Source of the DNA: a virus
Lineage: Duplodnaviria; Heunggongvirae; Uroviricota; Caudoviricetes
Direction: 5' to 3' (one strand)
IMG/VR virus record: IMGVR_UViG_2585427768_000007
DNA length: 16,552 nucleotides
A program made the position numbers and the translations under genes. A model generated the notes under the pieces. It had not been told where the DNA came from, made no database searches, and saw only the letters and a program-made list of their open reading frames with translations. This document shows positions 1,307 through 15,682 of the stretch, piece after piece. Position 1 is the stretch's first letter, and every line of letters starts with the position of its first letter.

Positions 1307-1849
1307 TTAAAAATCAACCGGATTCGGGATCAGTTTTTGCCAGATTGCTGAAACGTATTTTGCCTGGTGACGGGCGTCATCCAGTGCATTGTGGCGAACG
1401 CCTTCGAATGGAATAACGGTTCTAGCATCAAAGTCGATTGTTTTTCCCAGCTCAACGATTGTGCGTACATCGCGATCGTTGTGGTAGCGCCACGGGCAGG
1501 GGATTCCCTGTCGTTCGTATGAACGGCGTAAAATTACGTTGTCGAAACTGGTTCCGTTGCCCCAGACCTGAACAAAAAACTCACCAGAGTTTTCGTCGAT
1601 AAATTCCCGTAATTGTAACAGTGCATCATCTAACGGGATTTCATCAGCCAGAATGGCAGACTGCGCTTCGCGCGATTGCTTAAGCCACCACTTAACGGTG
1701 TCCCGATCAATGACACCGCCAGCAGTATCCAGATCGATAGTCTTACTAAATTCCGGTCCCATATCTCCGGTTTGCGGATCGAAAAATATTGCACCTATTG
1801 AGATGATCGGGGCATCAGGATTTTTTCCCATGGTTTCAAGGTCGATCAT
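1307..1849 (-). CDS. DEDDh-type 3'-5' exonuclease (DnaQ/RNase T-like), phage early protein
   Basis: 180-aa ORF with Exo I motif MIDLETMG (D and E), Exo II region VWGNGTSFD and Exo III motif HNALDDARH. Confidence 0.75.
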   Translation of the reverse strand: MIDLETMGKNPDAPIISIGAIFFDPQTGDMGPEFSKTIDLDTAGGVIDRDTVKWWLKQSREAQSAILADEIPLDDALLQLREFIDENSGEFFVQVWGNGTSFDNVILRRSYERQGIPCPWRYHNDRDVRTIVELGKTIDFDARTVIPFEGVRHNALDDARHQAKYVSAIWQKLIPNPVDF

Positions 1850-1856
1850 CAGATGG

Positions 1857-2063
1857 TCACACGTCCTGCTGGTGGATATGATTATGATGACTGTTCACCG
1901 CAATTAAGGGATTTGCCATCTCGCCAGTTTCATCACCGCTATCGCCATGCTGAGCGCCACCAGCGCTCTCCTTACGAGAATGCGCAGCGCCTTCCATTTC
2001 CTCCGAATCTTTTTCAACCAGATACTCTTCATCGAATGTTTCCTGATATGTTGCGTCACCCAT
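1857..2063 (-). CDS. Small acidic hypothetical protein
   Basis: ATG at 2063 overlaps the TGA stop (2056-2058) of the upstream segment (ATGGGTGA), suggesting translational coupling. The longer 72-aa form starting at 2075 is possible. No recognised domain. Confidence 0.4.
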
Positions 2064-2334
2064 AACAGCCCACAATCAGGACAATTGCCGCCGCCAGCCC
2101 GACCGCAAGCAGTGCAGCTTTTTCCACTTCCTGTTGCGCCACTGGCTCTGACTGTTGCACTTCTGGCCCGTTTTGTAACGCATCCGGGCTGTTTTGTTCC
2201 GCTTTCTGGTAGTTCCGTTCCAATTCATGCTGATTCTGGTACACAGAATCGCGAGTCTGGATCCCCTCAACCCACTTCGGATCATTCGGGTCGCTAATTC
2301 CTTCAACAAATTCACCACGTGAGACAGCAAGCAC
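2056..2334 (-). CDS. C-terminal segment of phage early protein, with a hydrophobic helix ([17 protein letters not shown])
   Basis: Typical codon usage only in this frame. It opens at a GTG directly after an in-frame TAA with no Shine-Dalgarno, so it is more likely the tail of the upstream frameshifted gene than an independent gene. Confidence 0.4.
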
Positions 2335-2401
2335 TTATCGGCGTCAGGCTGGCTGATATTGGCTGCCTGCATAATTTTGTTTACTTCGTCAGCGGTAACT
2401 T

Positions 2402-3193
2402 TTACCGGCCCTGGTTGTGCGATCGTGTCAGATGCACCAGTATTTTGTTGTGAACCTGAGTACGTACCGTTTTTACGGGCGAAATATTCCTCTTTCGTGA
2501 TTTCAGTAGCCCCAGCGCCAGTGCCTTATCCAGACCAGAAAGTTTGTTTGCGCGACCGTATTTTTCGCCGTCCTTATCGGTGAAAAGGAAGTAGAACGGT
2601 CCCTCACGCTCTACAGATGGTTCGTCTTCCACTTCGCATTCGGTTTTTTCGTTGTCCGGCATTGCCGTTTCCACTGCATCAGTTTCTGGTACTGGTGACG
2701 GGAGAGTACCAGCTGTGCCCTGATTTGTTCCTTCGTCATCTTCAAACACGCCCTTGGTAGTCAGGTATTCAGTGATGTATTTGTTCAGTGCTACGGGATC
2801 TTTGTGAATGTCGATCGGACGCTCACGGACAAGGCCAAAAATAGTCTGACGGTCGTAGCGAACGGCATCAGGCTGTTTGCGCATTGATGCCGAAATACGC
2901 TTCCAGTCTTCGCGATCGTTGTCGATAACTTCATTTTTTGCCCAGCGATGGATGCTGCCGTCAATGTTTCCGGTATCAATATCGCCAGGCCAGAGAGCGT
3001 AGGCCAGTTCTTCATCCAGCGTTTTCCATGTCTGCTTGTATTCGCGACAAATGGCGGCAGTGACTGGGTTGATTTTTCCTGCTGAGTTTTCAGTGTTCTG
3101 TTGATTGACTCTGGCGCTGGCGAGATCAACAACAGACGTGTATTTTCCAGTCTCCTTGCGCTCACCGTCCCGACGTTTTTTCCAGATACGCAT
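2402..3193 (-). CDS. Middle segment of phage early protein (acidic), in -1 frame relative to the 3765 start
   Basis: 263-aa ORF. Protein-like composition and common codons from 3193 to about 2510; the last ~35 codons use rare codons (cta, cga, agg, ata, cgg) and look like out-of-frame read-through. ATG at 3193 is preceded directly by TGA. Confidence 0.45.
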   Translation of the reverse strand: MRIWKKRRDGERKETGKYTSVVDLASARVNQQNTENSAGKINPVTAAICREYKQTWKTLDEELAYALWPGDIDTGNIDGSIHRWAKNEVIDNDREDWKRISASMRKQPDAVRYDRQTIFGLVRERPIDIHKDPVALNKYITEYLTTKGVFEDDEGTNQGTAGTLPSPVPETDAVETAMPDNEKTECEVEDEPSVEREGPFYFLFTDKDGEKYGRANKLSGLDKALALGLLKSRKRNISPVKTVRTQVHNKILVHLTRSHNQGR

Positions 3194-3765
3194 TCAGCCT
3201 GAATTTCGGGCCATTTGGCACCAGGATTACATTTATGCTTAACCCACCCGATAGCAAACAGCTTAAGCTCCGGATACATAGCGTTAACATCAGGCATTTT
3301 CATCAACGCTTCAACGATATGCCCGTCAAAGGTAGCAACGTCTTCCTGCAACAATTCCTGCGCGCCAATAACCATATCAACGGTGATGTTTTCACATGTA
3401 CCGAACTTAACCAGGACAGCGTTCTGTACTTCAAGGGACAGCTTGTCAAAATTGACGTTCATCGGATCGGATTCAGTCTCAACCGGGACAAAGGAAGCAG
3501 ACTCCTCATCCCAGCGGTTTTCCTGCATATATTCAGCATCCCAGGAATCGAGGGCAGGGCGGGGTATACCGGGTTTATCCTCGCAGACAAGAAATTTATA
3601 AGCGCAGTCCTGAGCAGCCGGATAATGTTCCAGGAATTGCCAGTGAAATTTTGCGCGGGCGCGACGTTCATCACCGGCTTCAATGGCAGTGGCTACAGCG
3701 ACGGCACCTTCTTCCTTTATTGCCTGTTCGTCCGGAATAGCGGCGCAAATAAAGACTTTACTCAT
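2791..3765 (-). CDS. N-terminal segment of phage early protein (first ~197 codons genuine, remainder out of frame)
   Basis: Shine-Dalgarno GAGGT upstream of ATG 3765. Composition is protein-like up to the A6 run at 3176-3181; after that the frame yields S/T/L/R-rich low-quality sequence while the -1 frame becomes protein-like. Confidence 0.5.
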   Translation of the reverse strand: MSKVFICAAIPDEQAIKEEGAVAVATAIEAGDERRARAKFHWQFLEHYPAAQDCAYKFLVCEDKPGIPRPALDSWDAEYMQENRWDEESASFVPVETESDPMNVNFDKLSLEVQNAVLVKFGTCENITVDMVIGAQELLQEDVATFDGHIVEALMKMPDVNAMYPELKLFAIGWVKHKCNPGAKWPEIQAECVSGKNVGTVSARRLENTRLLLISPAPESINRTLKTQQEKSTQSLPPFVANTSRHGKRWMKNWPTLSGLAILIPETLTAASIAGQKMKLSTTIAKTGSVFRHQCANSLMPFATTVRLFLALSVSVRSTFTKIP

Positions 3766-4392: not shown

Positions 4393-4448
4393 AAAGGGCG
4401 GCAGAGCAGTCACGGAGTAAAACTGATACCGCCAAACGTCACCAGAAA
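4393..4448 (-). ncRNA. dicF: DicF small regulatory RNA (ftsZ-targeting sRNA)
   Basis: Minus strand reads TTTCTGGTGACGTTTGGCGGTATCAGTTTTACTCCGTGACTGCTCTGCCGCCCTTTTT, which matches the E. coli DicF sequence as I remember it, including the terminal GC stem and U-tract. Confidence 0.8.
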
Positions 4449-5398: not shown

Positions 5399-5527
5399 TC
5401 AGCCGTTAGATTTTGCCGAGCTGGAAAGCGCCTGTTTAAACTCACTGAAGCTGAGAGCTTCTTCGCCTTCGGCAAGGCCTTCGAAGTATTCTTCGTAAGC
5501 CTTTTCCATGATTGTGTCGAAATCCAT
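5399..5527 (-). CDS. ydfB: YdfB-like small acidic protein (42 aa)
   Basis: Not in the supplied ORF track (below its size cut-off). Hand translation gives MDFDTIMEKAYEEYFEGLAEGEEALSFSEFKQALSSSAKSNG. AGGTGA Shine-Dalgarno upstream; packed between the ydfA-like and ydfC-like genes. Confidence 0.5.
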   Translation of the reverse strand: MDFDTIMEKAYEEYFEGLAEGEEALSFSEFKQALSSSAKSNG

Positions 5528-5528
5528 A

Positions 5529-5684
5529 TCACTCACCTGAGTTTCTTTCCAGCCAGCGACGGGCACCATTTTCGGTTTTAAACGTTTTGCTTTTGGTATA
5601 CGTCATCGCGGTGAATGTGCCGTCCTGGTTGGGAAACACGCCGTACACCAGAGATTCATTGTTGCCAAGATCGATAGTATCCAT
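5529..5684 (-). CDS. ydfA: YdfA-like small prophage protein (51 aa)
   Basis: MDTIDLGNNESLVYGVFPNQDGTFTAMTYTKSKTFKTENGARRWLERNSGE. GAGG 7 nt upstream of this internal ATG. The longer 80-aa form starting at 5771 is possible but its N-terminal extension is low-complexity. Confidence 0.55.
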   Translation of the reverse strand: MDTIDLGNNESLVYGVFPNQDGTFTAMTYTKSKTFKTENGARRWLERNSGE

Positions 5685-5890
5685 GCTGACCTCATTTCCC
5701 CTTAACGCCGGGGTAGCGGAACTAAAAAACTGCTGCGCTGTTATATAAAGTGTTCCCGCCGTCATGTTCATACGCCTCGGGCTGGCTACTTAACCCCTGA
5801 CCACTGCCGGGTAACTCGAAGTATTGCCTGGCGTTCTGTGGGGCGGGGGGGGTTGATGAATGAACAATACCACTACTATTTAATTATGTA

Positions 5891-5905
5891 AATAGCAGTG
5901 CTATT
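5891..5905. promoter_or_regulatory. Candidate repressor operator, perfect inverted repeat AATAGCA-G-TGCTATT, upstream of the dicB-like operon
   Basis: 15-bp palindrome between the terminator after the toxin gene and the ydfA-like gene. The same half-site recurs twice in the repressor/cro intergenic region. Confidence 0.5.
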
Positions 5906-5913
5906 ATCGTGGC

Positions 5914-5939
5914 AAGAAAAAAACCACCCGAAGGTGGTT
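5914..5939 (-). terminator. Rho-independent terminator downstream of the toxin gene
   Basis: On the minus strand, stem AACCACC, loop TTCG, stem GGTGGTT, followed by TTTTTTTCTT. Confidence 0.6.
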
Positions 5940-5953
5940 GTTGACAGGAAGGA

Positions 5954-6244
5954 TTAACAGGTTTTGTTTGGATACTGTCTTCGTGAGTGAACTACATTTA
6001 CGATCTCGATGTTAGATGCTGTTACTCGGTAAAGTATTATGTAGTTAGGATGAGTCACTATCTCACGAAGACTTGGAACTCTTTCGCTCGGTGGGTACAG
6101 ATAAGGGTGTTCAGTAAGTGACAAAACTGATGTTTCAATGCGTATTTTTAGTCTACGTGCAGCGGGAGGGTTTTCCTTAGCAATATAGGCTACGATCTGA
6201 CGTAAATCATCACGTGCAGAAGGTAGCCATAAAATGGGCAGCAT
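5954..6244 (-). CDS. Type II toxin, RelE/ParE superfamily (ParE-like)
   Basis: 96-aa ORF with ParE-like conserved layout (W near N-terminus, DL..I..YI, central proline-rich segment, ILYRV, H.RR near C-terminus). Start ATG overlaps the antitoxin stop by 1 nt. Confidence 0.8.
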   Translation of the reverse strand: MLPILWLPSARDDLRQIVAYIAKENPPAARRLKIRIETSVLSLTEHPYLYPPSERVPSLREIVTHPNYIILYRVTASNIEIVNVVHSRRQYPNKTC

Positions 6245-6435
6245 TACTCACTCCTGTTCGTTGCAGCTAATTGAGCAATAAGGTTTTCCATTTCAGCCAT
6301 TACTTCGTCATGTGGAATTGCAGGACGGGGATCTGAGAGGCTTGCTGCCACTTTGGTTCGCAACCATTCGTTATAGCTGTTTTCTTGTTCGACTGTTTCA
6401 AATTCAGAAATTATCGGGGAAAGGGCTGTACTCAT
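6244..6435 (-). CDS. Cognate antitoxin (ParD-like, putative)
   Basis: 63-aa acidic ORF immediately upstream of and coupled to the toxin. Strong Shine-Dalgarno GAGGAGG. Antitoxin-first order is typical of ParDE/RelBE modules. Confidence 0.7.
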   Translation of the reverse strand: MSTALSPIISEFETVEQENSYNEWLRTKVAASLSDPRPAIPHDEVMAEMENLIAQLAATNRSE

Positions 6436-6452
6436 GTTTTTACCTCCTCAGA

Positions 6453-6953
6453 TTAGGCGCGACGACCCTTTTGCGCAGCTAGCCATCGCGCAACGATTTC
6501 TTCAATTGATTCTTTTTTCTCCTTCATTTCCTTAAGCATTTTCTCTTTATCTTCTTTGGGGAAAGCCCTGAACGTCTGGAGCAAATCCCGCTCCATGGGG
6601 TCTATATTAAACGGAAGTTCGTTTTCCGATTGTTCCATATCTGCAGATATAGTGACAACATTGTCCTCCCCAGATTCTTGGGGATACATCCTTACAATTT
6701 GTAACAACTCGGCCATATCTGGTCTGATTGACTCGGGAGGAACTTGCAGCAACCCTGCGAACTTGATAACAGCCTCAAGATTTAAAGGTGTCTGACCATT
6801 TAGATAATGGCTTACAGCTCCCTGTGTCGAAAATCCCAGAATTTCTGCCGCACGCTCTTGGGTTAACCCTAGTTGATTTTTTTTCGCCGTCCAGATTTCT
6901 TTCAGTCTCTGGGCGGCTTGCAGGTCGATCTCTGACAGGGATTTTCTTTTCAT
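6453..6953 (-). CDS. Prophage repressor, XRE-family HTH (CI/DicA functional analog), no S24 peptidase domain evident
   Basis: 166-aa ORF; HTH segment LTQERAAEILGFSTQGAVSHYLNG; charged coiled-coil-like C-terminus; divergent from the Cro-like gene across an operator-rich intergenic region. Confidence 0.8.
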   Translation of the reverse strand: MKRKSLSEIDLQAAQRLKEIWTAKKNQLGLTQERAAEILGFSTQGAVSHYLNGQTPLNLEAVIKFAGLLQVPPESIRPDMAELLQIVRMYPQESGEDNVVTISADMEQSENELPFNIDPMERDLLQTFRAFPKEDKEKMLKEMKEKKESIEEIVARWLAAQKGRRA

Positions 6954-7060
6954 ACCTTCAATTCTAATAAGATTATTAATCTCTTTGAAATAGTGATGCT
7001 ATTTACTTTTAAAAATAACAATGCTATTAGTGATCGTGATGACATCACATGAGGTGAACA
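6954..7060. promoter_or_regulatory. Divergent promoter/operator region between repressor and Cro-like gene
   Basis: Two 15-bp sites with TGCTATT half-sites (6988-7002 AATAGTGATGCTATT; 7013-7027 AATAACAATGCTATT) and a distinct 13-bp palindrome GTGATGACATCAC at 7035-7047, just upstream of the Cro-like RBS GAGGTG. Confidence 0.6.
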
Positions 7061-7336
7061 ATGAATCTTGGAGAATATTTGCATCATTCCGGTATAACTC
7101 AGAAGCATTTTGCTGAAATTGTTGGGGTAACCCAAGGGATGGTAAGCCATGTCATTACCGGACGGGCGAAACTTACGGGGAAAAAAATTTTACGCTGGTG
7201 CGAAGCAACAGGCTGGATAGTAACTCCGCACGAGATTGATGGCAGTACTTATCCCAACCCAACCGACGGCTTACCTGTCGAGTATCAGGCTAACACACAA
7301 CCAGAGGCGGGGGTGATTCATGAAAATCAAGCATGA
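7061..7336 (+). CDS. Cro/YdaS-like HTH regulator
   Basis: 91-aa ORF; HTH segment ITQKHFAEIVGVTQGMVSHVITG; divergent from the repressor; overlaps the next gene by 17 nt. Confidence 0.75.
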   Translation: MNLGEYLHHSGITQKHFAEIVGVTQGMVSHVITGRAKLTGKKILRWCEATGWIVTPHEIDGSTYPNPTDGLPVEYQANTQPEAGVIHENQA

Positions 7337-7745
7337 ACACATCCGCATGGCAATGAATGCCTGGGCGTATCCAGACGGTGAGAAAGTTCCAGCAGCTGAA
7401 ATAGCCCGGACTTATTTCGAACTGGGGATGACGTTCCCGGAACTGTACGACGACAGCCATCCGGAAGCCCTGGCCCGTAATACCCAGAAAATTTTCCGCT
7501 GGGTAGAGAAAGACACCCCTGATGCAGTTGAAAAAATTCAGGCGTTGTTACCAGCGATCGAAAAGGCAATGCCACCTTTGCTGGTGGCCAGAATGCGCAG
7601 CCACAGTTCAGCTTATTTTCGGGAGCTGGTGGAGACGCGGGAGCGACTGGTGAGAGACGCTGATGATTTTGTCGCAGTGGCAATCGCCGGTTTCAATCAG
7701 ATGAACCGTGGTGGCCCGGCAGGAAATGCTGTGGCAGTACATTGA
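7320..7745 (+). CDS. YdaT-family protein (CII-like regulator, formerly called a toxin)
   Basis: 141-aa ORF starting MKIKHEHI, the characteristic YdaT-family N-terminus as I recall it; sits directly after the Cro/YdaS-like gene as in Rac. Confidence 0.65.
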   Translation: MKIKHEHIRMAMNAWAYPDGEKVPAAEIARTYFELGMTFPELYDDSHPEALARNTQKIFRWVEKDTPDAVEKIQALLPAIEKAMPPLLVARMRSHSSAYFRELVETRERLVRDADDFVAVAIAGFNQMNRGGPAGNAVAVH

Positions 7746-10502: not shown

Positions 10503-11696
<1,194 letters not shown>

Positions 11697-11853
11697 CTAG
11701 ATTAAAGAGCATTAGTTCAGATGTGAATTGACATTTTCATGGCGCAGGGTAGAGCCAGCGTGGTTGTCCGCTTTGCGTCAAAACCAGATATTACCAGATT
11801 TAGACATATATTCCCGATAGCCCTGCTCTGATGCTACACTCTGTGCTATTTTC

Positions 11854-12540
11854 ATGACCCCAATAAAAATATTTATGACTATTGCTGATTTCAAACGGCC
11901 TAAATTGGAACTCCCAAACGGGGCAAACAAACTACTACTGCACTCTTGCTGTGCTCCATGTTCCGGTGAAGTGATGGAGGCGCTTCAGGCCTCGGGAATC
12001 GACTACACCATCTTTTTCTACAACCCGAACATTCATCCTCAGAAAGAGTATTTAATTCGTAAGGATGAAAATATTCGCTTTGCTGAACAACACGGCGTGC
12101 CGTTTATCGATGCTGATTACGACACCGACAACTGGTTTGAACGTGCCAAAGGAATGGAATGGGAGCCTGAGAGGGGGATCCGTTGTACCATGTGTTTTGA
12201 CATGCGTTTTGAGCGGACAGCGTTGTACGCTGCTGAAAATGGTTTCAGTGTGATCAGCAGTTCACTGGGCATTTCACGCTGGAAAAATATGCAGCAGGTT
12301 AACGAGTGTGGGCGGCGAGCTGTTGCGCATTATCCGGGTATGGTGTACTGGGATTATAACTGGCGCAAGCAGGGCGGCTCGTCCCGTATGATTGAAATCA
12401 GCAAGCGCGAAAAATTCTATCAGCAGGAATATTGTGGCTGTGTGTATTCTCTGCGCGATACCAATCTACACCGCAAATCTCAGGGACGCCCTCTTATCAA
12501 AATTGGCCAACTCCACTACGGAAAAGAAGAGAAGGAGTGA
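11854..12540 (+). CDS. QueH-like protein (DUF208; epoxyqueuosine-reductase family), putative
   Basis: 228-aa ORF with [11 protein letters not shown] near the N-terminus, NPNIHP, RC..CF, and C-terminal [10 protein letters not shown], matching DUF208/QueH cysteine motifs as I recall them. Family assignment is from memory. Confidence 0.55.
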
Positions 12541-12610
12541 TTTTATGGATCACCTTTCTGATTGATTTCATATTGGCGAGGTGACGTGAGTTAAGTAGAA
12601 TTGCTGCGGG

Positions 12611-12635
12611 TGCCTGAGGCTGTCTGCCTCAGGCA
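12611..12635. promoter_or_regulatory. Perfect 10-bp inverted repeat (TGCCTGAGGC-TGTCT-GCCTCAGGCA) between the queH-like and methyltransferase genes
   Basis: GC-rich hairpin with no U-tract; each arm contains a CCTNAGG heptamer. Candidate attenuator, operator or RNA-stability element. Confidence 0.4.
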
Positions 12636-12718
12636 TGAACACCAAAAGGCAGATAGAGAAAGCCCCAGTTAACATTACGCGTCCTGTAAGACGCTCAACA
12701 TTAATCTGAGGCATATGG

Positions 12719-13843
12719 ATGCGGATGAAAGAATTAAATAAATTCAGAGTGATAGACCTCTTTTGTGGGGCAGGTGGATTATCTTATGGTTTTCTTCATG
12801 GAGAGATGTCTGACTACTTTGAAAGTATCCTTGCTATTGATAATAATGCTGCAGCTATAAATACCTACAATGCCAATTTTGGTTTGCATGGAGTTCAGGC
12901 AAATATTGAGGAGTGGGCATCCAGCAATACTGTTCCTGAGGCTGATGTGGTCATAGGTGGCCCCCCGTGTCAGGGATTCAGTTTATTAAATAAGAATCGT
13001 TATGGTGATCACCGAAGAGCATTGTGGGAGCCTTATATGGATGTCATTGAGCGTTCAAGGGCTTGTATGTTCGTCATGGAAAATGTCCCCGGATTGCTGA
13101 TAAGCGATGAGTTTGCGGACATTACGTTTAGAGCGAAATCCATGGGCTTTATTCTGCTTAATCCAATGGTGTTGAATACTGCTGACTATGGAGTACCTCA
13201 GACAAGAAAACGAACGATAGCAATCGGTATCAAACGAGAACTCTTCGATGTGCATAGTATTCCGGCGTTCCCGCCAGCACCAACGCATCGTTCCCCTGAT
13301 AAGGATGTCGCTTTGCCTGAATGGGTCTGTACGCGTGATGCAATTGGTGACTTACCTGCTCCTGTTGGAACTGATATTCGTAATGAACTTCCTCCGCTGA
13401 ACTTACATTTTGGGCGTAATCCCACACCTGTTTCTCTGGAGCGATATAAAGCGGTTCCACCAGGAGGTAACCGTTTCGATTTACAGAAAAAAAGACCTGA
13501 TATAACCCCGGCGTGCTGGCTAAAAAAGAAATCTGGAGGGACCGATTTGTTTGGACGTCTGTGGTGGGACAGACCTTCAGTAACGATTCGTACTGAGTTT
13601 TTCAAACCGGAGAAAGGGCGATATTTACATCCGGAAGAGGATCGGCCAATAACTCATCGTGAGGCAGCGAGATTAATGTCTTTTCCTGATAATTTCATTT
13701 TTACCGGTTCAAAAACTGAGATTGCAAAGCAGATCGGGAATGCTGTTCCACCGCTATTTGCGGCAAAAATCGCACAATATGTGTATGGAGTTTTGCAGGG
13801 ACGGTATAAGAATAACATCAGTAAGAATAGTCAAGCAGCCTGA
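12719..13843 (+). CDS. DNA (cytosine-5)-methyltransferase, Type II R-M modification subunit
   Basis: 374-aa ORF with canonical m5C motifs in order: I DLFCGAGG, IV GGPPCQGFS, VI ENV, VIII QTRKR, IX REAARLMSFPD, X GNAVPP. GAGG 8 nt upstream of the ATG. Confidence 0.9.
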   Translation: MRMKELNKFRVIDLFCGAGGLSYGFLHGEMSDYFESILAIDNNAAAINTYNANFGLHGVQANIEEWASSNTVPEADVVIGGPPCQGFSLLNKNRYGDHRRALWEPYMDVIERSRACMFVMENVPGLLISDEFADITFRAKSMGFILLNPMVLNTADYGVPQTRKRTIAIGIKRELFDVHSIPAFPPAPTHRSPDKDVALPEWVCTRDAIGDLPAPVGTDIRNELPPLNLHFGRNPTPVSLERYKAVPPGGNRFDLQKKRPDITPACWLKKKSGGTDLFGRLWWDRPSVTIRTEFFKPEKGRYLHPEEDRPITHREAARLMSFPDNFIFTGSKTEIAKQIGNAVPPLFAAKIAQYVYGVLQGRYKNNISKNSQAA

Positions 13844-13856
13844 AGGAAATCCAGAA

Positions 13857-14735
13857 ATGAATGGAGATTTGGTTGACAGCATAGTTGGTTTTGCTGAAGC
13901 CAGAAAGGAGTTTCATGCCCAATTGTTACTGAATACGCTCACAATTAATACTGCCGGAGTTGTTAGTAACGCAGATAGCAGTAACAAAAACAGTAAAGCT
14001 ATAGCAAGAGAAATTGCTCGCTTCTTGCAGGCTGAAACGATTGGTGAACGTGTTGCAGGGCAAACATCTGGTAATCAGTTTGAGAGTATCTGCGCAGAGT
14101 TTATAGAAAAAACCTTTTTTAAACTCAGCCACTTACGCCCTGGAAAATGGAATGTACATCAGGTTTCTGGTAGAAACAGATTAGAGATAGCTAAATATGA
14201 ACAATATGCCCATCTTATAGCATTGGATAGTGCTGCAAAAAGTAATCCTCAGCTAGCTGCTGCACTGGGGAGTGATTATACGATTTCACCAGATATTATT
14301 GTTGAAAGAGAACCTGAATGTGATCAAGTTATCAACAGTCCTGAATTACTGGTGGATGATTCTGTTACCCGCATGTCAGCTCTCAGGAGTTCGAATGGTG
14401 GGAAACCAATATTACACGCAAGTATTTCCTGCAAATGGACAATAAGAAGCGACCGGGCCCAGAATGCTCGTTCTGAGGCATTAAATCTTATTCGCAACCG
14501 TAAGGGAAATCTCCCTCATGTAATGGTTGTTACTGCTGAGCCTACTCCAAGTCGTCTGGCGTCTATTGCTCTTGGTACTGGTGATATAGATTGCGTGTAT
14601 CATTTTGCGCTTTATGAACTTATATCAGCAGTTGAAATACTGGGGCTCAGCGATGCAGCTGACATGCTTTCCGTGATGGTTAATGGTAAAAGATTAAAGG
14701 ATATTTCTGATCTTCCCTTGGATCTTGCAGTCTGA
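13857..14735 (+). CDS. Type II restriction endonuclease, putative (NgoMIV/Cfr10I-like PD...SxK...E arrangement)
   Basis: 292 aa from ATG 13857, 14 nt after the methyltransferase stop (the track ORF starting at 13722 overlaps the methyltransferase). P145-D146, S191-x-K193, E207: the D-to-K spacing of 47 and K-to-E spacing of 14 equal those I recall for NgoMIV (D140, K187, E201). Confidence 0.6.
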   Translation: MNGDLVDSIVGFAEARKEFHAQLLLNTLTINTAGVVSNADSSNKNSKAIAREIARFLQAETIGERVAGQTSGNQFESICAEFIEKTFFKLSHLRPGKWNVHQVSGRNRLEIAKYEQYAHLIALDSAAKSNPQLAAALGSDYTISPDIIVEREPECDQVINSPELLVDDSVTRMSALRSSNGGKPILHASISCKWTIRSDRAQNARSEALNLIRNRKGNLPHVMVVTAEPTPSRLASIALGTGDIDCVYHFALYELISAVEILGLSDAADMLSVMVNGKRLKDISDLPLDLAV

Positions 14736-14807
14736 CATCTCTACGTAAATAGAGTCTGTCATATTTTAACTGTGATGGCACGTCATTGACTTCAGTACAT
14801 TTTTACT

Positions 14808-14833
14808 AACCCGCTTCGCGGGTTTTGTTTTTT
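14808..14833 (+). terminator. Rho-independent terminator downstream of the restriction gene
   Basis: AACCCGC-TTC-GCGGGTT followed by TTGTTTTTT. Confidence 0.65.
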
Positions 14834-14905
14834 CCTGGCATTCTGGTTTACAATCCACACGCCAGCCTGAACAACTGGCACCTGCTGCGCCAGCAGAGAA
14901 AACAG

Positions 14906-15184
14906 ATGGCGCACGATACCAAACCATACAATTCTGATAATTCAGCCGTCTTTGCCAGCAGGCACGGGCGGCGTTCTCATGCATTCAAATCTGACTGGTA
15001 TCAGCACGACCCCTGCACCGAAGAACAGGCTGAATGGCTGATTCAGTGTTACCGCAGGCGCGGATACGAGGTTAAGAAAGCCCTCACCCTCGATTATCGT
15101 CACTGGATAATCTACGTCAGACTCCCTTATTCCGAACGCCCACCGCGTCCGTCCCGCACATATCAGCAACGCATCTGGAGGTAA
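14906..15184 (+). CDS. Hypothetical small protein
   Basis: 92 aa from ATG 14906; the track ORF start at 14825 overlaps the terminator. Several rare arginine codons; ends about 30 bp before the IS66 truncation point. Weak call. Confidence 0.3.
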   Translation: MAHDTKPYNSDNSAVFASRHGRRSHAFKSDWYQHDPCTEEQAEWLIQCYRRRGYEVKKALTLDYRHWIIYVRLPYSERPPRPSRTYQQRIWR

Positions 15185-15214
15185 CGTGCGGGTATTACTT
15201 CGACCTGTTCTGGT

Positions 15215-15682
15215 AAAGGCGCTGCTGATAAGCTCCAGTTGCTCTGACACATCACATCCCAGAGAACTGAGTTCACCACCACAGGCAGGACAGCATTCCT
15301 CTTCCGGCCGGATAACCCGGGTTTCACGGGGAAGTGAGGCCGGTAACGGTTTACGGGCTGAAGACTGGCGCAGGGCGGATGGCAGTACCGGGTCATATTG
15401 CTCACCCAGCGTTTCCGCCATTTCTTCCTGAAGTGCGCTGATTCGCTCCTGTGCTTCCTGTATCTGCCGTTCGGTTTTTGCACGAAGTTTTTCTGAGCTT
15501 TTACCGAACTGCATACGTTGCAGTTTCGCAACCAGCGCCTTCAGCCGGTTGATTTCGGAAGCATAAGCCGCCACCCGCTGTGAGAGCAGGCGGTTGTATT
15601 CAGCCATCTGGCGGATGGTGTCCTGTTGCGTCTGCAACAGTGCCCGCAGGCGGGCGTTCTCATGAGCAAGTGAGGTGTCCAT
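15215..15682 (-). pseudogene. IS66 transposase TnpC, N-terminal fragment only
   Basis: Starts MDTSLAHENARLRALLQTQQDTIRQMAEYNRLL, with leucine zipper and CxxC zinc finger (CCPACGG) as in ISEc8-like TnpC. Catalytic region absent; the track ORF continues to 14942 as out-of-frame read-through. Confidence 0.8.

Follow-up and report, generated by a model that had tools for sequence, protein, structure and literature searches.

The minus-strand genes between 6953 and 5954 of the 16,552-nt stretch of DNA analysed here (the window) very probably form the leftward immunity operon of a lambdoid E. coli prophage and represent a third allele of the three-component paaR-paaA-parE system. The arrangement itself is not new: it has been published since 2010 for cryptic prophages of E. 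coli O157:H7 (Hallez 2010, cited in Jurenas 2021, PMC8630535), where the three genes form one operon, CI has its analogue in PaaR2, and addiction is reported for the module (PMC8630535). Our results mostly confirm this published biology, in which a toxin-antitoxin (TA) pair is wired into the lysis-lysogeny switch of a prophage. What is new, judging from the sequences, is a third allele beyond the two O157 alleles compared; the modest addition it brings is that PaaA-ParE and the C-terminal helices of the repressor are combinable with another, lambda-cI-type DNA-binding specificity. The comparison system was paaR2-paaA2-parE2 of CP-933P/Sp12 (structures 5cw7, 3zbe and 7nkv). One O157:H7 locus (L005) is bona fide paaR2-paaA2-parE2, with a ParE identical to the ParE2 in the PDB and a PaaR that starts MQKKE. 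A second O157:H7 paralogue (L002) is presumably paaR1-paaA1-parE1 of CP-933M. Both resemble the present locus in gene order, neighbours (dicB, ydfA, ydaS, ydaT) and junction style. The present operon comprises the following features.

6953 to 6453, minus strand: repressor ORF, 166 aa, with its ATG at 6953 and its stop (TAA) at 6455-6453
6452 to 6436, minus strand: repressor-antitoxin spacer of 17 nt, TCTGAGGAGGTAAAAAC, carrying the Shine-Dalgarno GAGGAGG
6435 to 6244, minus strand: PaaA-family antitoxin, 63 aa (PF21217, NF050103, PDB 3zbe/5cw7)
6244 to 5954, minus strand: ParE-family toxin, 96 aa (PF05016, PDB 5cw7_B)
5939 to 5914, minus strand: intrinsic terminator (hairpin 5939-5922), a 7-bp stem AACCACC-TTCG-GGTGGTT followed by the T-run TTTTTCTT

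The preliminary description had the antitoxin starting 17 nt after the repressor stop behind a strong Shine-Dalgarno, a 1-nt overlap of antitoxin and toxin, and no terminator before the end of the toxin gene. The spacing and the overlap are exact in the sequence: GAGGAGG (6449-6443) lies 7 nt 5' of the antitoxin ATG (6435), and the antitoxin stop and toxin ATG share the single base 6244 (TAATG), with an AGGAG at 6255-6251, 6 nt ahead of the toxin ATG. Consistent with the absence of an intervening terminator, a consensus scan detected no promoter-like or terminator-like site in the repressor-antitoxin or antitoxin-toxin junction, so that no promoter and terminator part the repressor from the TA genes there. 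Inside the repressor gene the scan returned two weak matches, at 6658-6629 a promoter-like site scoring 9/12 and at 6628-6612 a 5-bp stem with a poor T-tail; their number is not above that in shuffled sequence, and a G+C-rich hairpin at the 3' end of the gene has no U-tract (z = 0.22). An internal promoter or terminator between the genes was rejected, as these sub-threshold sites, no more than in shuffles, were all that was found. The first convincing terminator, and the sole good one, follows the toxin, beginning 14 nt past its stop with a stability of -10.4 kcal/mol. The repressor-antitoxin spacer measures 27 nt in L002 and 20 nt in L005 and in both contains a separate Shine-Dalgarno; antitoxin and toxin are joined there by a 1-nt overlap or a 1-nt gap. 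Because the arrangement recurs in two diverged alleles it is more than chance, and the three genes of the present allele are predicted to lie on one transcript.

We consider it improbable that the two TA genes form a self-contained module, driven by a promoter of their own, which happens to adjoin the repressor gene and is co-transcribed with it through incidental read-through. Pairs of PaaA and ParE that lack an adjoining PaaR-like gene do occur (in Bartonella, Acetobacteraceae, Sphingomonadales and others), so the two genes are apparently able to function alone; the repressor gene contains the weak promoter-like site described above, and in a CP-933P reporter the TA operon is appreciably transcribed in both switch states (PMC8630535). 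Against this, the 17-nt spacer holds neither promoter nor terminator, PaaA has no DNA-binding domain (profile search; PMC8630535) and the homologue is reported as an operon (PMC8630535). Furthermore, the block of inter-allele homology runs unbroken from 6583 down to 5401, taking in both the TA genes and the part of the repressor gene that encodes the C-terminus. We note that the 9/12 site at 6658-6629 could give some repressor-independent TA transcription.

The proposed assignment of the pair to the ParE/RelE family was borne out and narrowed by HMM and structure-database searches, which identify a ParE-family toxin and a PaaA2-family antitoxin. The toxin matches Pfam PF05016 (ParE_toxin, 6.6e-18) and PDB 5cw7_B (ParE2, 5e-36, aligned over 1-92 of 92), although it is only 65% identical to the crystallised ParE2 over its full length. 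In the antitoxin PF21217 (PaaA2, 1e-21) is the sole domain of the 63 aa, with further matches to NF050103 (1e-26) and to PaaA2 in the PDB (3zbe/5cw7, 2e-22); its identity to PaaA2 is only 70%, over residues 1-56. The closest TA relative is the second O157 paralogue, with 84% identity for PaaA, 88% for ParE and 88% for YdaT. Canonical parDE modules of the RK2 type carry a ParD antitoxin whose ribbon-helix-helix (RHH) DNA-binding domain autoregulates the operon. We rejected this class for the present pair, as its antitoxin matches PaaA2 only and Pfam and NCBIfam profile searches found no RHH or other DNA-binding domain in it. It is very unlikely that the toxin is a RelE-type ribosome-dependent mRNA interferase instead of a ParE-type poison that triggers the DNA-damage response. 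ParE and RelE share a fold, ParE2 is assigned no cellular target in PMC8630535, and TIGR02385 (RelE_StbE) gives a near-threshold match of 27.6 bits against a cut-off of 27.9. However, ParE_toxin is the best family, ParE2 is the closest solved relative, and ParE2 co-localises with the nucleoid and has been seen to elicit an SOS response (PMC8630535).

The TA genes show the mark of purifying selection, which is consistent with function: between alleles, parE has 44 synonymous and 11 non-synonymous codon differences, and the differences fall mostly at third codon positions. The prophage itself looks degraded, with IS5 and IS66 sequences and a RecE-like exonuclease broken up over several ORFs, and this lambdoid E. 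coli element is probably defective. Although such degradation would fit a decaying, non-functional TA remnant, this is hardly credible given that the three ORFs are intact and full length relative to solved homologues, synonymous changes strongly exceed non-synonymous ones, dozens of genomes carry the locus in identical form, and conservation extends to the operators, the promoters and the YdaT site.

The gene upstream of the TA pair proved to be a prophage repressor, as initially described: it carries an HTH_3 domain (Pfam, 1e-9) and a cI-like N-terminal domain, is divergent from ydaS/ydaT (7061-7745) and adjoins replication genes, which together with integrase, exonuclease, dicB and DicF flank the region (dicB and DicF both lie in the window). 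An AF2 model (pLDDT 77) has five helices in the HTH domain (about residues 8-89) and two in the C-terminal domain (119-165), with a disordered linker between the domains (93-113). The N-terminal domain matches that of lambda cI in the PDB (phmmer, E 1e-9), and Foldseek superposes the model on it with a TM of 0.86-0.93, an rmsd of 1.1-1.5 A and 35-39% identity. The C-terminal 44-76 aa are instead 54-55% identical to PaaR1-type and PaaR2 proteins. The repressor is a mosaic of PaaR C-terminal helices and a lambda-cI-type N-terminal domain. As a candidate PaaR it is thus an HTH gene 17 nt upstream of the antitoxin on the same strand, with PaaR homology limited to the C-terminal 44-76 aa. Full-length homology to PaaR2 was rejected, as the C-terminal helices alone align, and the solved PaaR2 N-terminal domain (7nkv) gave no match from the present repressor. 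Since the DNA-binding domain is not homologous to that of PaaR2, operator order and PRM activation cannot simply be transferred from that system. For the PaaR2 oligomer, the literature searched yielded nothing beyond the mBio paper (PMC8630535). Positions 75-130 of the NCBIfam DicA model (NF007257) align to repressor residues 107-162 (1.5e-7), with a score of 31 bits that is far below the family cut-off of 101. DicA of the Qin prophage of E. coli K-12 is likewise a short HTH repressor in the cI position of a prophage with dicB and DicF, but no TA pair was seen linked to it in the present analysis. An SOS-cleavable repressor was also rejected: PF00717 (S24) gave no match, and the AF2 model folds the C-terminal part into two helices. 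Without this self-cleaving domain, RecA-mediated cleavage is not expected; the sole Ala-Gly of the protein (residues 66-67) falls within the HTH domain. The prophage lineage also includes a repressor variant of 244 aa with a double HTH.

The sequences on either side of the operon contain promoter-like and operator-like elements, together with two genes of the opposite strand.

6961 to 6989, minus strand: PRM-like promoter found by promoter scan, -35 TTCAAA (6989-6984), 17-nt spacer, -10 TAGAAT (6966-6961)
6988 to 7004, AAATAGTGATGCTATTT, and 7013 to 7029, AAATAACAATGCTATTA, no strand assigned: OR-like operator pair, centres 25 bp apart
5864 to 5892, minus strand: PL-like leftward promoter found by scan, TTTACA, 17 nt, TG-TATTGT, directly past the terminator
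5865 to 5881 and 5890 to 5906, no strand assigned: OL-like operator pair of the 17-bp AAATAG-N5-CTATTT type, centres 25 bp apart
7061 to 7336, plus strand: ydaS-type Cro analogue, 91 aa, HTH_3
7320 to 7745, plus strand: ydaT-type CII analogue, 141 aa (PF06254, phrog_163, PDB 8bt1)
7313 to 7330, no strand assigned: OM-like inverted repeat, a YdaT operator, GTGATTCATGAAAATCAA, one mismatch from TTGATT-N6-AATCAA

The -10 of the PRM-like promoter ends 7 nt ahead of the repressor ATG and no Shine-Dalgarno is present, from which a leaderless repressor mRNA is predicted. The present, paaR2 and paaR1-type alleles all have a 5/6 -10 hexamer that stops 6-7 nt short of the ATG, and 5' RACE on paaR2 mapped the start of transcription to the ATG itself (PMC8630535), suggesting that the present repressor mRNA may be translated in leaderless form as well. 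Five AAATAG-N5-CTATTT sites with at most 2 mismatches occur in the window, against 0.66 expected (none of 200 shuffles reaches 5), and four of the five fall in the OL-like and OR-like pairs. The site at 6988-7004 is a perfect palindrome abutting the -35 of the PRM-like promoter, that at 7013-7029 lies over the presumed PR -10, and the two OL-like copies overlap the PL-like promoter. This last promoter would drive ydfA/ydfB/ydfC, DicF and dicB; the analogous PL933P has been demonstrated for CP-933P (PMC8630535), in which YdaS is the Cro analogue, YdaT the CII analogue, and analogues of PL and PRE exist (PMC8630535, PMC9986795). YdaT of the present locus matches phrog_163 ('CII-like transcriptional activator', 1e-44) and PDB 8bt1 (YdaT, 1e-78) and is 83-88% identical to O157-type YdaT proteins. 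The YdaT binding site has been defined by footprinting as TTGATT-N6-AATCAA (PMC9986795); the OM-like repeat starts 7 nt before the ydaT ATG, and a perfect site occupies the same position in the paaR2 locus. The ydaS-type protein has an allele-specific N-terminal part, unrelated to that of CP-933P, and a C-terminal part in common with the O157 paralogue.

Overall, the present locus shares with paaR2-paaA2-parE2 its components (a regulator, a PaaA without a DNA-binding domain and a ParE), equally tight junctions, divergence from ydaS-ydaT, a location in the rexAB slot with the repressor on one side and a PL-like promoter on the other, the leaderless-type -10-to-ATG geometry and the position of the YdaT site. 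The regulators have similar C-terminal helices and neither has an S24 peptidase domain, but they differ in length (166 aa here, 123 aa in PaaR2), in an unrelated N-terminal domain (lambda-cI type here, 7nkv type in PaaR2) and in their operators (AAATAG-N5-CTATTT here, GTTTAGTAA-type repeats in CP-933P). Lambda cI-rexA-rexB is alike in the homologous repressor N-terminal domain, the leaderless-type repressor mRNA from a PRM-like promoter, the 17-bp operators and the order of two accessory genes after the repressor, then a terminator, then OL/PL. In contrast to lambda, the cargo is a ParE-type TA pair and not RexAB, the repressor C-terminal domain is short and helical where cI has the S24 self-cleaving domain, and the unrelated YdaT replaces CII.

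These elements suggest how the operon may work. In the lysogenic state the repressor, as the CI analogue, would be transcribed from the PRM-like promoter as a leaderless mRNA, and the transcript would run on through the 17-nt spacer into PaaA, with its strong Shine-Dalgarno, and then into a translationally coupled ParE, stopping at the terminator (5939-5914) just before the PL-like promoter. Because the operon ends there, the TA pair sits where lambda has rexA-rexB, as it stands in for rexAB in the O157:H7-type prophage (PMC8630535, PMC9986795), and because PaaA has no DNA-binding domain, TA transcription would be set by the phage switch and not by the TA complex. In this switch the repressor would act through the 17-bp operators of OR and OL, YdaS would serve as Cro, and YdaT would serve as CII at the ydaS/ydaT junction. 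In the O157:H7 system the toxin is neutralised by the antitoxin, which is degraded by ClpAP/ClpXP, and the locus stabilises plasmids via post-segregational killing, although at steady state ParE2 was not observed to be activated (PMC8630535). By analogy, we infer toxicity, antitoxin lability and addiction for the present allele: a labile PaaA would neutralise the ParE-fold toxin, and loss of the operon would free it, so that the module would be an addiction device keeping the immunity region, and hence the prophage, in the genome. This would agree with the initial suggestion that the coupling stabilises lysogeny, given the addictive O157:H7 homologue (PMC8630535).

A reading that we regard as rather doubtful casts the TA pair chiefly as a RexAB analogue, expressed from the lysogenic transcript for phage exclusion or abortive infection, and not as an addiction device. 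The pair does occupy the rexAB position, from the repressor gene to PL (PMC9986795), and the slot is filled, in related prophages that have homologous repressors, by other cargo resembling defence models, either PD-Lambda-2 A/B-like HigB + HTH or PDC-M66 A/B-like HipA_2 + DUF3037. However, no PADLOC model matches the toxin, antitoxin, repressor or YdaT, phage-challenge results for the PaaA-ParE family were not found in the literature searched, and it is post-segregational killing that published experiments show (PMC8630535); both roles can coexist.

Returning to the addiction reading, the mosaic repressor bears on a published proposal in which recombinants of the immunity region that have lost the TA pair are counter-selected by it. 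Relative to L002, DNA homology extends unbroken over ydfA, parE, paaA and the final ~130 nt of the repressor gene, and it picks up again in the 3' portion of ydaS. Between these points ~660 bp (6584-7245) are swapped, a segment with the coding region for the N-terminal domain and linker of the repressor, the operators, the promoters and the ydaS 5' part, which implies a different immunity specificity. A recombinant that keeps its TA block is the outcome predicted if the TA pair polices immunity-region recombination, making the allele a natural test case for the proposal. Since the cargo of the slot varies (ParE TA, PD-Lambda-2-like HigBA, PDC-M66-like HipA_2/DUF3037), PaaA-ParE may also be anti-phage. 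Taken together, it is possible, and offered tentatively, that the locus is a heteroimmune recombinant, with 6584-7245 swapped and the repressor C-terminus-paaA-parE block kept linked, that the slot is an exchangeable hot spot, and that PaaA-ParE is in addition a lysogen-expressed anti-phage module.

The 1.1-kb locus gave no megablast match in the INPHARED phage collection, so in the collections searched the allele is known only from bacterial chromosomes. There it is intact and 100% identical in many genomes, including O104:H4, with 41 records at 99% identity or above and 70 records holding the full locus. Being common, and identical in enteroaggregative/Shiga-toxigenic O104:H4 and numerous other E. 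coli, the allele could matter for prophage retention in pathogens. In O104:H4 the identity extends only around the operon, and the replication region differs.

The predicted operon occupies the minus strand and is followed by the first good terminator found in a consensus scan:

6953..6453, minus strand: ORF, 166-aa HTH repressor
6435..6244, minus strand: ORF, 63-aa PaaA-family antitoxin (Pfam PaaA2)
6244..5954, minus strand: ORF, 96-aa ParE-family toxin (Pfam ParE_toxin)
5939-5914, minus strand: terminator, 7-bp G+C-rich stem, TTCG loop, TTTTTCTT, -10.4 kcal/mol

The repressor and antitoxin genes are separated by 17 nt (TCTGAGGAGGTAAAAAC), with GAGGAGG 7 nt ahead of the antitoxin ATG, while the antitoxin and toxin genes have one base in common (TAATG), with AGGAG 6 nt ahead of the toxin ATG. 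The preliminary description of this geometry (17-nt gap, Shine-Dalgarno, 1-nt overlap) was thus accurate to the base, and its placing of the first terminator downstream of the toxin, with none ahead of the antitoxin, agrees with the scan, which found neither promoter nor terminator at the repressor/antitoxin and antitoxin/toxin junctions. Within the repressor gene the scan gave weak matches, a 9/12 promoter-like site at 6658-6629 and a 5-bp stem at 6628-6612, but at a frequency that does not exceed that of shuffled sequence. The hairpin formed at the 3' end of this gene lacks a U-tract (z = 0.22).

HMM searches assigned both small proteins to families. The antitoxin matches Pfam PaaA2 (1e-21), NCBIfam NF050103 (1e-26) and solved PaaA2 (3zbe/5cw7, 2e-22), and it lacks a DNA-binding domain. 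The toxin matches Pfam ParE_toxin (6.6e-18), and its residues 1-92 align with the E. coli O157:H7 ParE2 known from a crystal structure (5cw7_B, 5e-36). Since its matches are to ParE_toxin and ParE2, a RelE-like activity, which the preliminary description had left open, is very unlikely. The repressor carries an HTH_3 domain. Over the N-terminal ~90 residues it resembles the corresponding domain of lambda cI both in sequence (1e-9) and in the fold of the AlphaFold model (pLDDT 77; TM 0.86-0.93, rmsd 1.1-1.5 A, 35-39% identity). In the model residues 93-113 are disordered and 119-165 form two helices; the C-terminal part matches that of a DicA model, and neither domain search nor model revealed an S24 peptidase domain.

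The operon is the three-component paaR-paaA-parE TA system of the cryptic prophages CP-933P and CP-933M in E. coli O157:H7, which later papers credit to Hallez et al. 2010. The paaR2-paaA2-parE2 genes are reported to form one operon; PaaR2 is a functional analogue of CI with a leaderless mRNA, YdaS takes the part of Cro and YdaT that of CII, promoters resembling PL and PRE are present, and the locus stabilises plasmids through post-segregational killing (Jurenas et al. 2021 mBio, PMC8630535); paaA2-parE2 stand in place of rexA-rexB and PaaR2 in place of CI (Prolic-Kalinsek et al. 2023, PMC9986795). Locus L005 is a bona fide paaR2-paaA2-parE2: its ParE agrees with the PDB ParE2 sequence at every residue, and the PaaR begins MQKKE, matching the paper; L002, the second O157:H7 paralogue, is presumably paaR1-paaA1-parE1. 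Both share gene order, neighbours and junction style with the window operon: their spacers are 20 and 27 nt (with Shine-Dalgarno) and their antitoxin/toxin junctions a 1-nt gap or overlap. The earlier reading of a ParE-family TA pair behind a prophage repressor is therefore supported, but the three-gene arrangement is already in the literature, and the window locus is an uncharacterised heteroimmune addition to it.

L002 is the closer paralogue (PaaA 84%, ParE 88%, YdaT 88% identity), PaaA2 and ParE2 being more distant (70% and 65%). The repressor is homologous to the PaaR1-type proteins and PaaR2 only in the C-terminal 44-76 residues (54-55%), and its DNA-binding domain belongs to a different type. 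At the DNA level the window is homologous to L002 over 5401-6583 and again from 7246. The ~660 bp in between are unrelated; they encode the N-terminal domain of the repressor and its linker, include the operators and promoters, and reach into the 5' part of ydaS. By its sequence this is a classic immunity-region swap, and the window allele would thus be heteroimmune to both characterised alleles. In double-HTH repressors of 240-255 aa (P0014, P0019, P0020; also L043 3001-3735), a single chain joins the window-type lambda-cI-like N-terminal domain (73% identical over 96 aa) to an entire PaaR1-like protein (57% over 129 aa). The 166-aa repressor looks like such a fusion minus its internal HTH domain, or the double-HTH proteins like later fusions.

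The control region contains the following:

6989-6961, minus strand: PRM-like promoter-like site (TTCAAA, 17 nt, TAGAAT)
6988-7004 and 7013-7029: predicted operator pair (AAATAG-N5-CTATTT), repressor/ydaS intergenic region
5865-5881 and 5890-5906: predicted operator pair (AAATAG-N5-CTATTT), overlapping the leftward promoter-like site
5892-5864, minus strand: predicted PL-like leftward promoter (TTTACA, 17 nt, TG-TATTGT), starting just past the TA terminator
7061-7336, divergent from the operon: YdaS-type HTH protein
7313-7330: YdaT operator OM (TTGATT-N6-AATCAA), one mismatch, starting 7 nt ahead of the ydaT ATG
7320-7745, divergent from the operon: YdaT-type protein (PF06254; phrog_163 'CII-like activator' 1e-44; PDB 8bt1 1e-78)

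The 17-bp AAATAG-N5-CTATTT sequence occurs five times in the window with at most two mismatches, against 0.66 expected, and none of 200 shuffles reached five. Four of the five sites form two pairs, 25 bp centre to centre within each, an OR/OL-type layout of predicted operators in which paaA-parE, just like rexAB, sit after the repressor gene and before PL. The OM position relative to the ydaT ATG is that of the perfect site in L005 and L002. The PRM-like site ends 7 nt ahead of the repressor ATG, where a Shine-Dalgarno is absent, and in the alleles of paaR2 and of the paaR1 type a 5/6 -10 hexamer sits 6 nt ahead of the ATG; the repressor's -10-to-ATG geometry fits the leaderless start mapped for paaR2 (PMC8630535). 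A perfect 13-bp palindrome, GTGATGACATCAC, lies at 7036-7048, with the presumed PR promoter on one side and the Shine-Dalgarno of ydaS on the other, and GTGAT recurs at 6993 and 7030; the palindrome may represent a second site class (YdaS/Cro?), distinct from the AAATAG-N5-CTATTT operators.

We consider it probable that the operon is a switch-controlled addiction device. During lysogeny it would be transcribed from the PRM-like promoter as a leaderless repressor cistron followed by an efficiently initiated PaaA and a translationally coupled ParE; because PaaA is unable to bind DNA, TA transcription would track the phage switch. Loss of the operon would leave stable ParE without labile PaaA and poison the cell, so that the module would addict its host to the immunity region. 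The present sequence analysis itself establishes gene identity, geometry, operators and selection; for co-transcription, toxicity, antitoxin lability and addiction we extrapolate from the O157:H7 homologues. We regard an autonomous TA promoter as improbable and unsupported, even though PaaA-ParE pairs without a PaaR neighbour are known in Alpha- and Betaproteobacteria. Such pairs (55-78% identity; Bartonella, Acetobacteraceae, Sphingomonadales, Rhodocyclaceae and others), drawn from L007-L042 (e.g. L009 3001-3476, L012 3001-3479, L014 1845-2320), usually have no same-strand upstream regulator gene; their PaaA is also only about 62 aa, without a DNA-binding domain, and the toxin is frameshifted in several Bartonella copies.

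A RexAB-like anti-phage role of the TA pair is rather doubtful. In its favour, the same slot behind the related repressors P0014 and P0025 has genes matching PDC-M66 A/B and PD-Lambda-2 A/B, which are candidate or validated defence models; against it, PaaA and ParE match none of the PADLOC defence models. In related lambdoid prophages whose repressor N-terminal domain is homologous to that of the window, the slot holds HipA_2 and DUF3037 (L043 3001-5360; PADLOC PDC-M66A/B match), HigB and an HTH protein (L046 3001-4339, Salmonella diarizonae; PD-Lambda-2 A/B match) or a 178-aa protein without assigned family (L048 3001-4189). The slot behind the repressor (the rexAB position) looks like a hot spot where defence/TA cargo is exchanged.

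Between-allele substitutions cluster at third codon positions, and parE differs between the window and L002 by 44 synonymous and 11 non-synonymous codon differences, which shows purifying selection on the TA genes. The full 1.1-kb locus is found in 70 of 5426 complete E. coli genomes (at least 99% identical in 41, O104:H4 strains among them), TA homologues in 842 genomes, and the 90% cluster of the repressor comprises 107 sequences, spread over at least 1000 contigs. Given this selection and the spread of the locus in E. coli, it is most unlikely that the module is a decayed remnant.

The flanking genes are typical of a lambdoid prophage: to the left lie integrase, RecE-like exonuclease, a presumed dicB, DicF RNA and ydfABC, and to the right replication genes of the DnaT-like and P types. 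The RecE-like exonuclease (1307-3765, minus strand) is broken up into at least three ORFs (1307-1849, 2402-3193, 2791-3765), which suggests that the prophage is defective; the gene is whole (about 2.47 kb) in strain JKHS016 and O104:H4. DicF antisense sRNA (Rfam RF00039, 76.7 bits) maps to 4396-4447 (minus strand), downstream of the PL-like promoter, and the dicB annotation comes from homologous loci of other strains (L001, L049). A match to the sok antitoxin RNA family (RF01794) at 12608-12788 (plus strand), barely above threshold (61 bits; gathering score 59), extends into the beginning of the cytosine methyltransferase ORF and is possibly a hok/sok-type remnant; the O104:H4 prophage has hokD annotated at the equivalent position. 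The late-early region (10535-15682) carries accessory cargo:

10535-11551: IS5 transposase
11854-12540: QueH epoxyqueuosine reductase
12719-13843: C5 cytosine methyltransferase of a type II restriction-modification pair
13722-14735: NgoMIV-family endonuclease, its partner
14942-15682, minus strand: IS66-family fragment

Homology between the window and the closest genome stops at about 15215.
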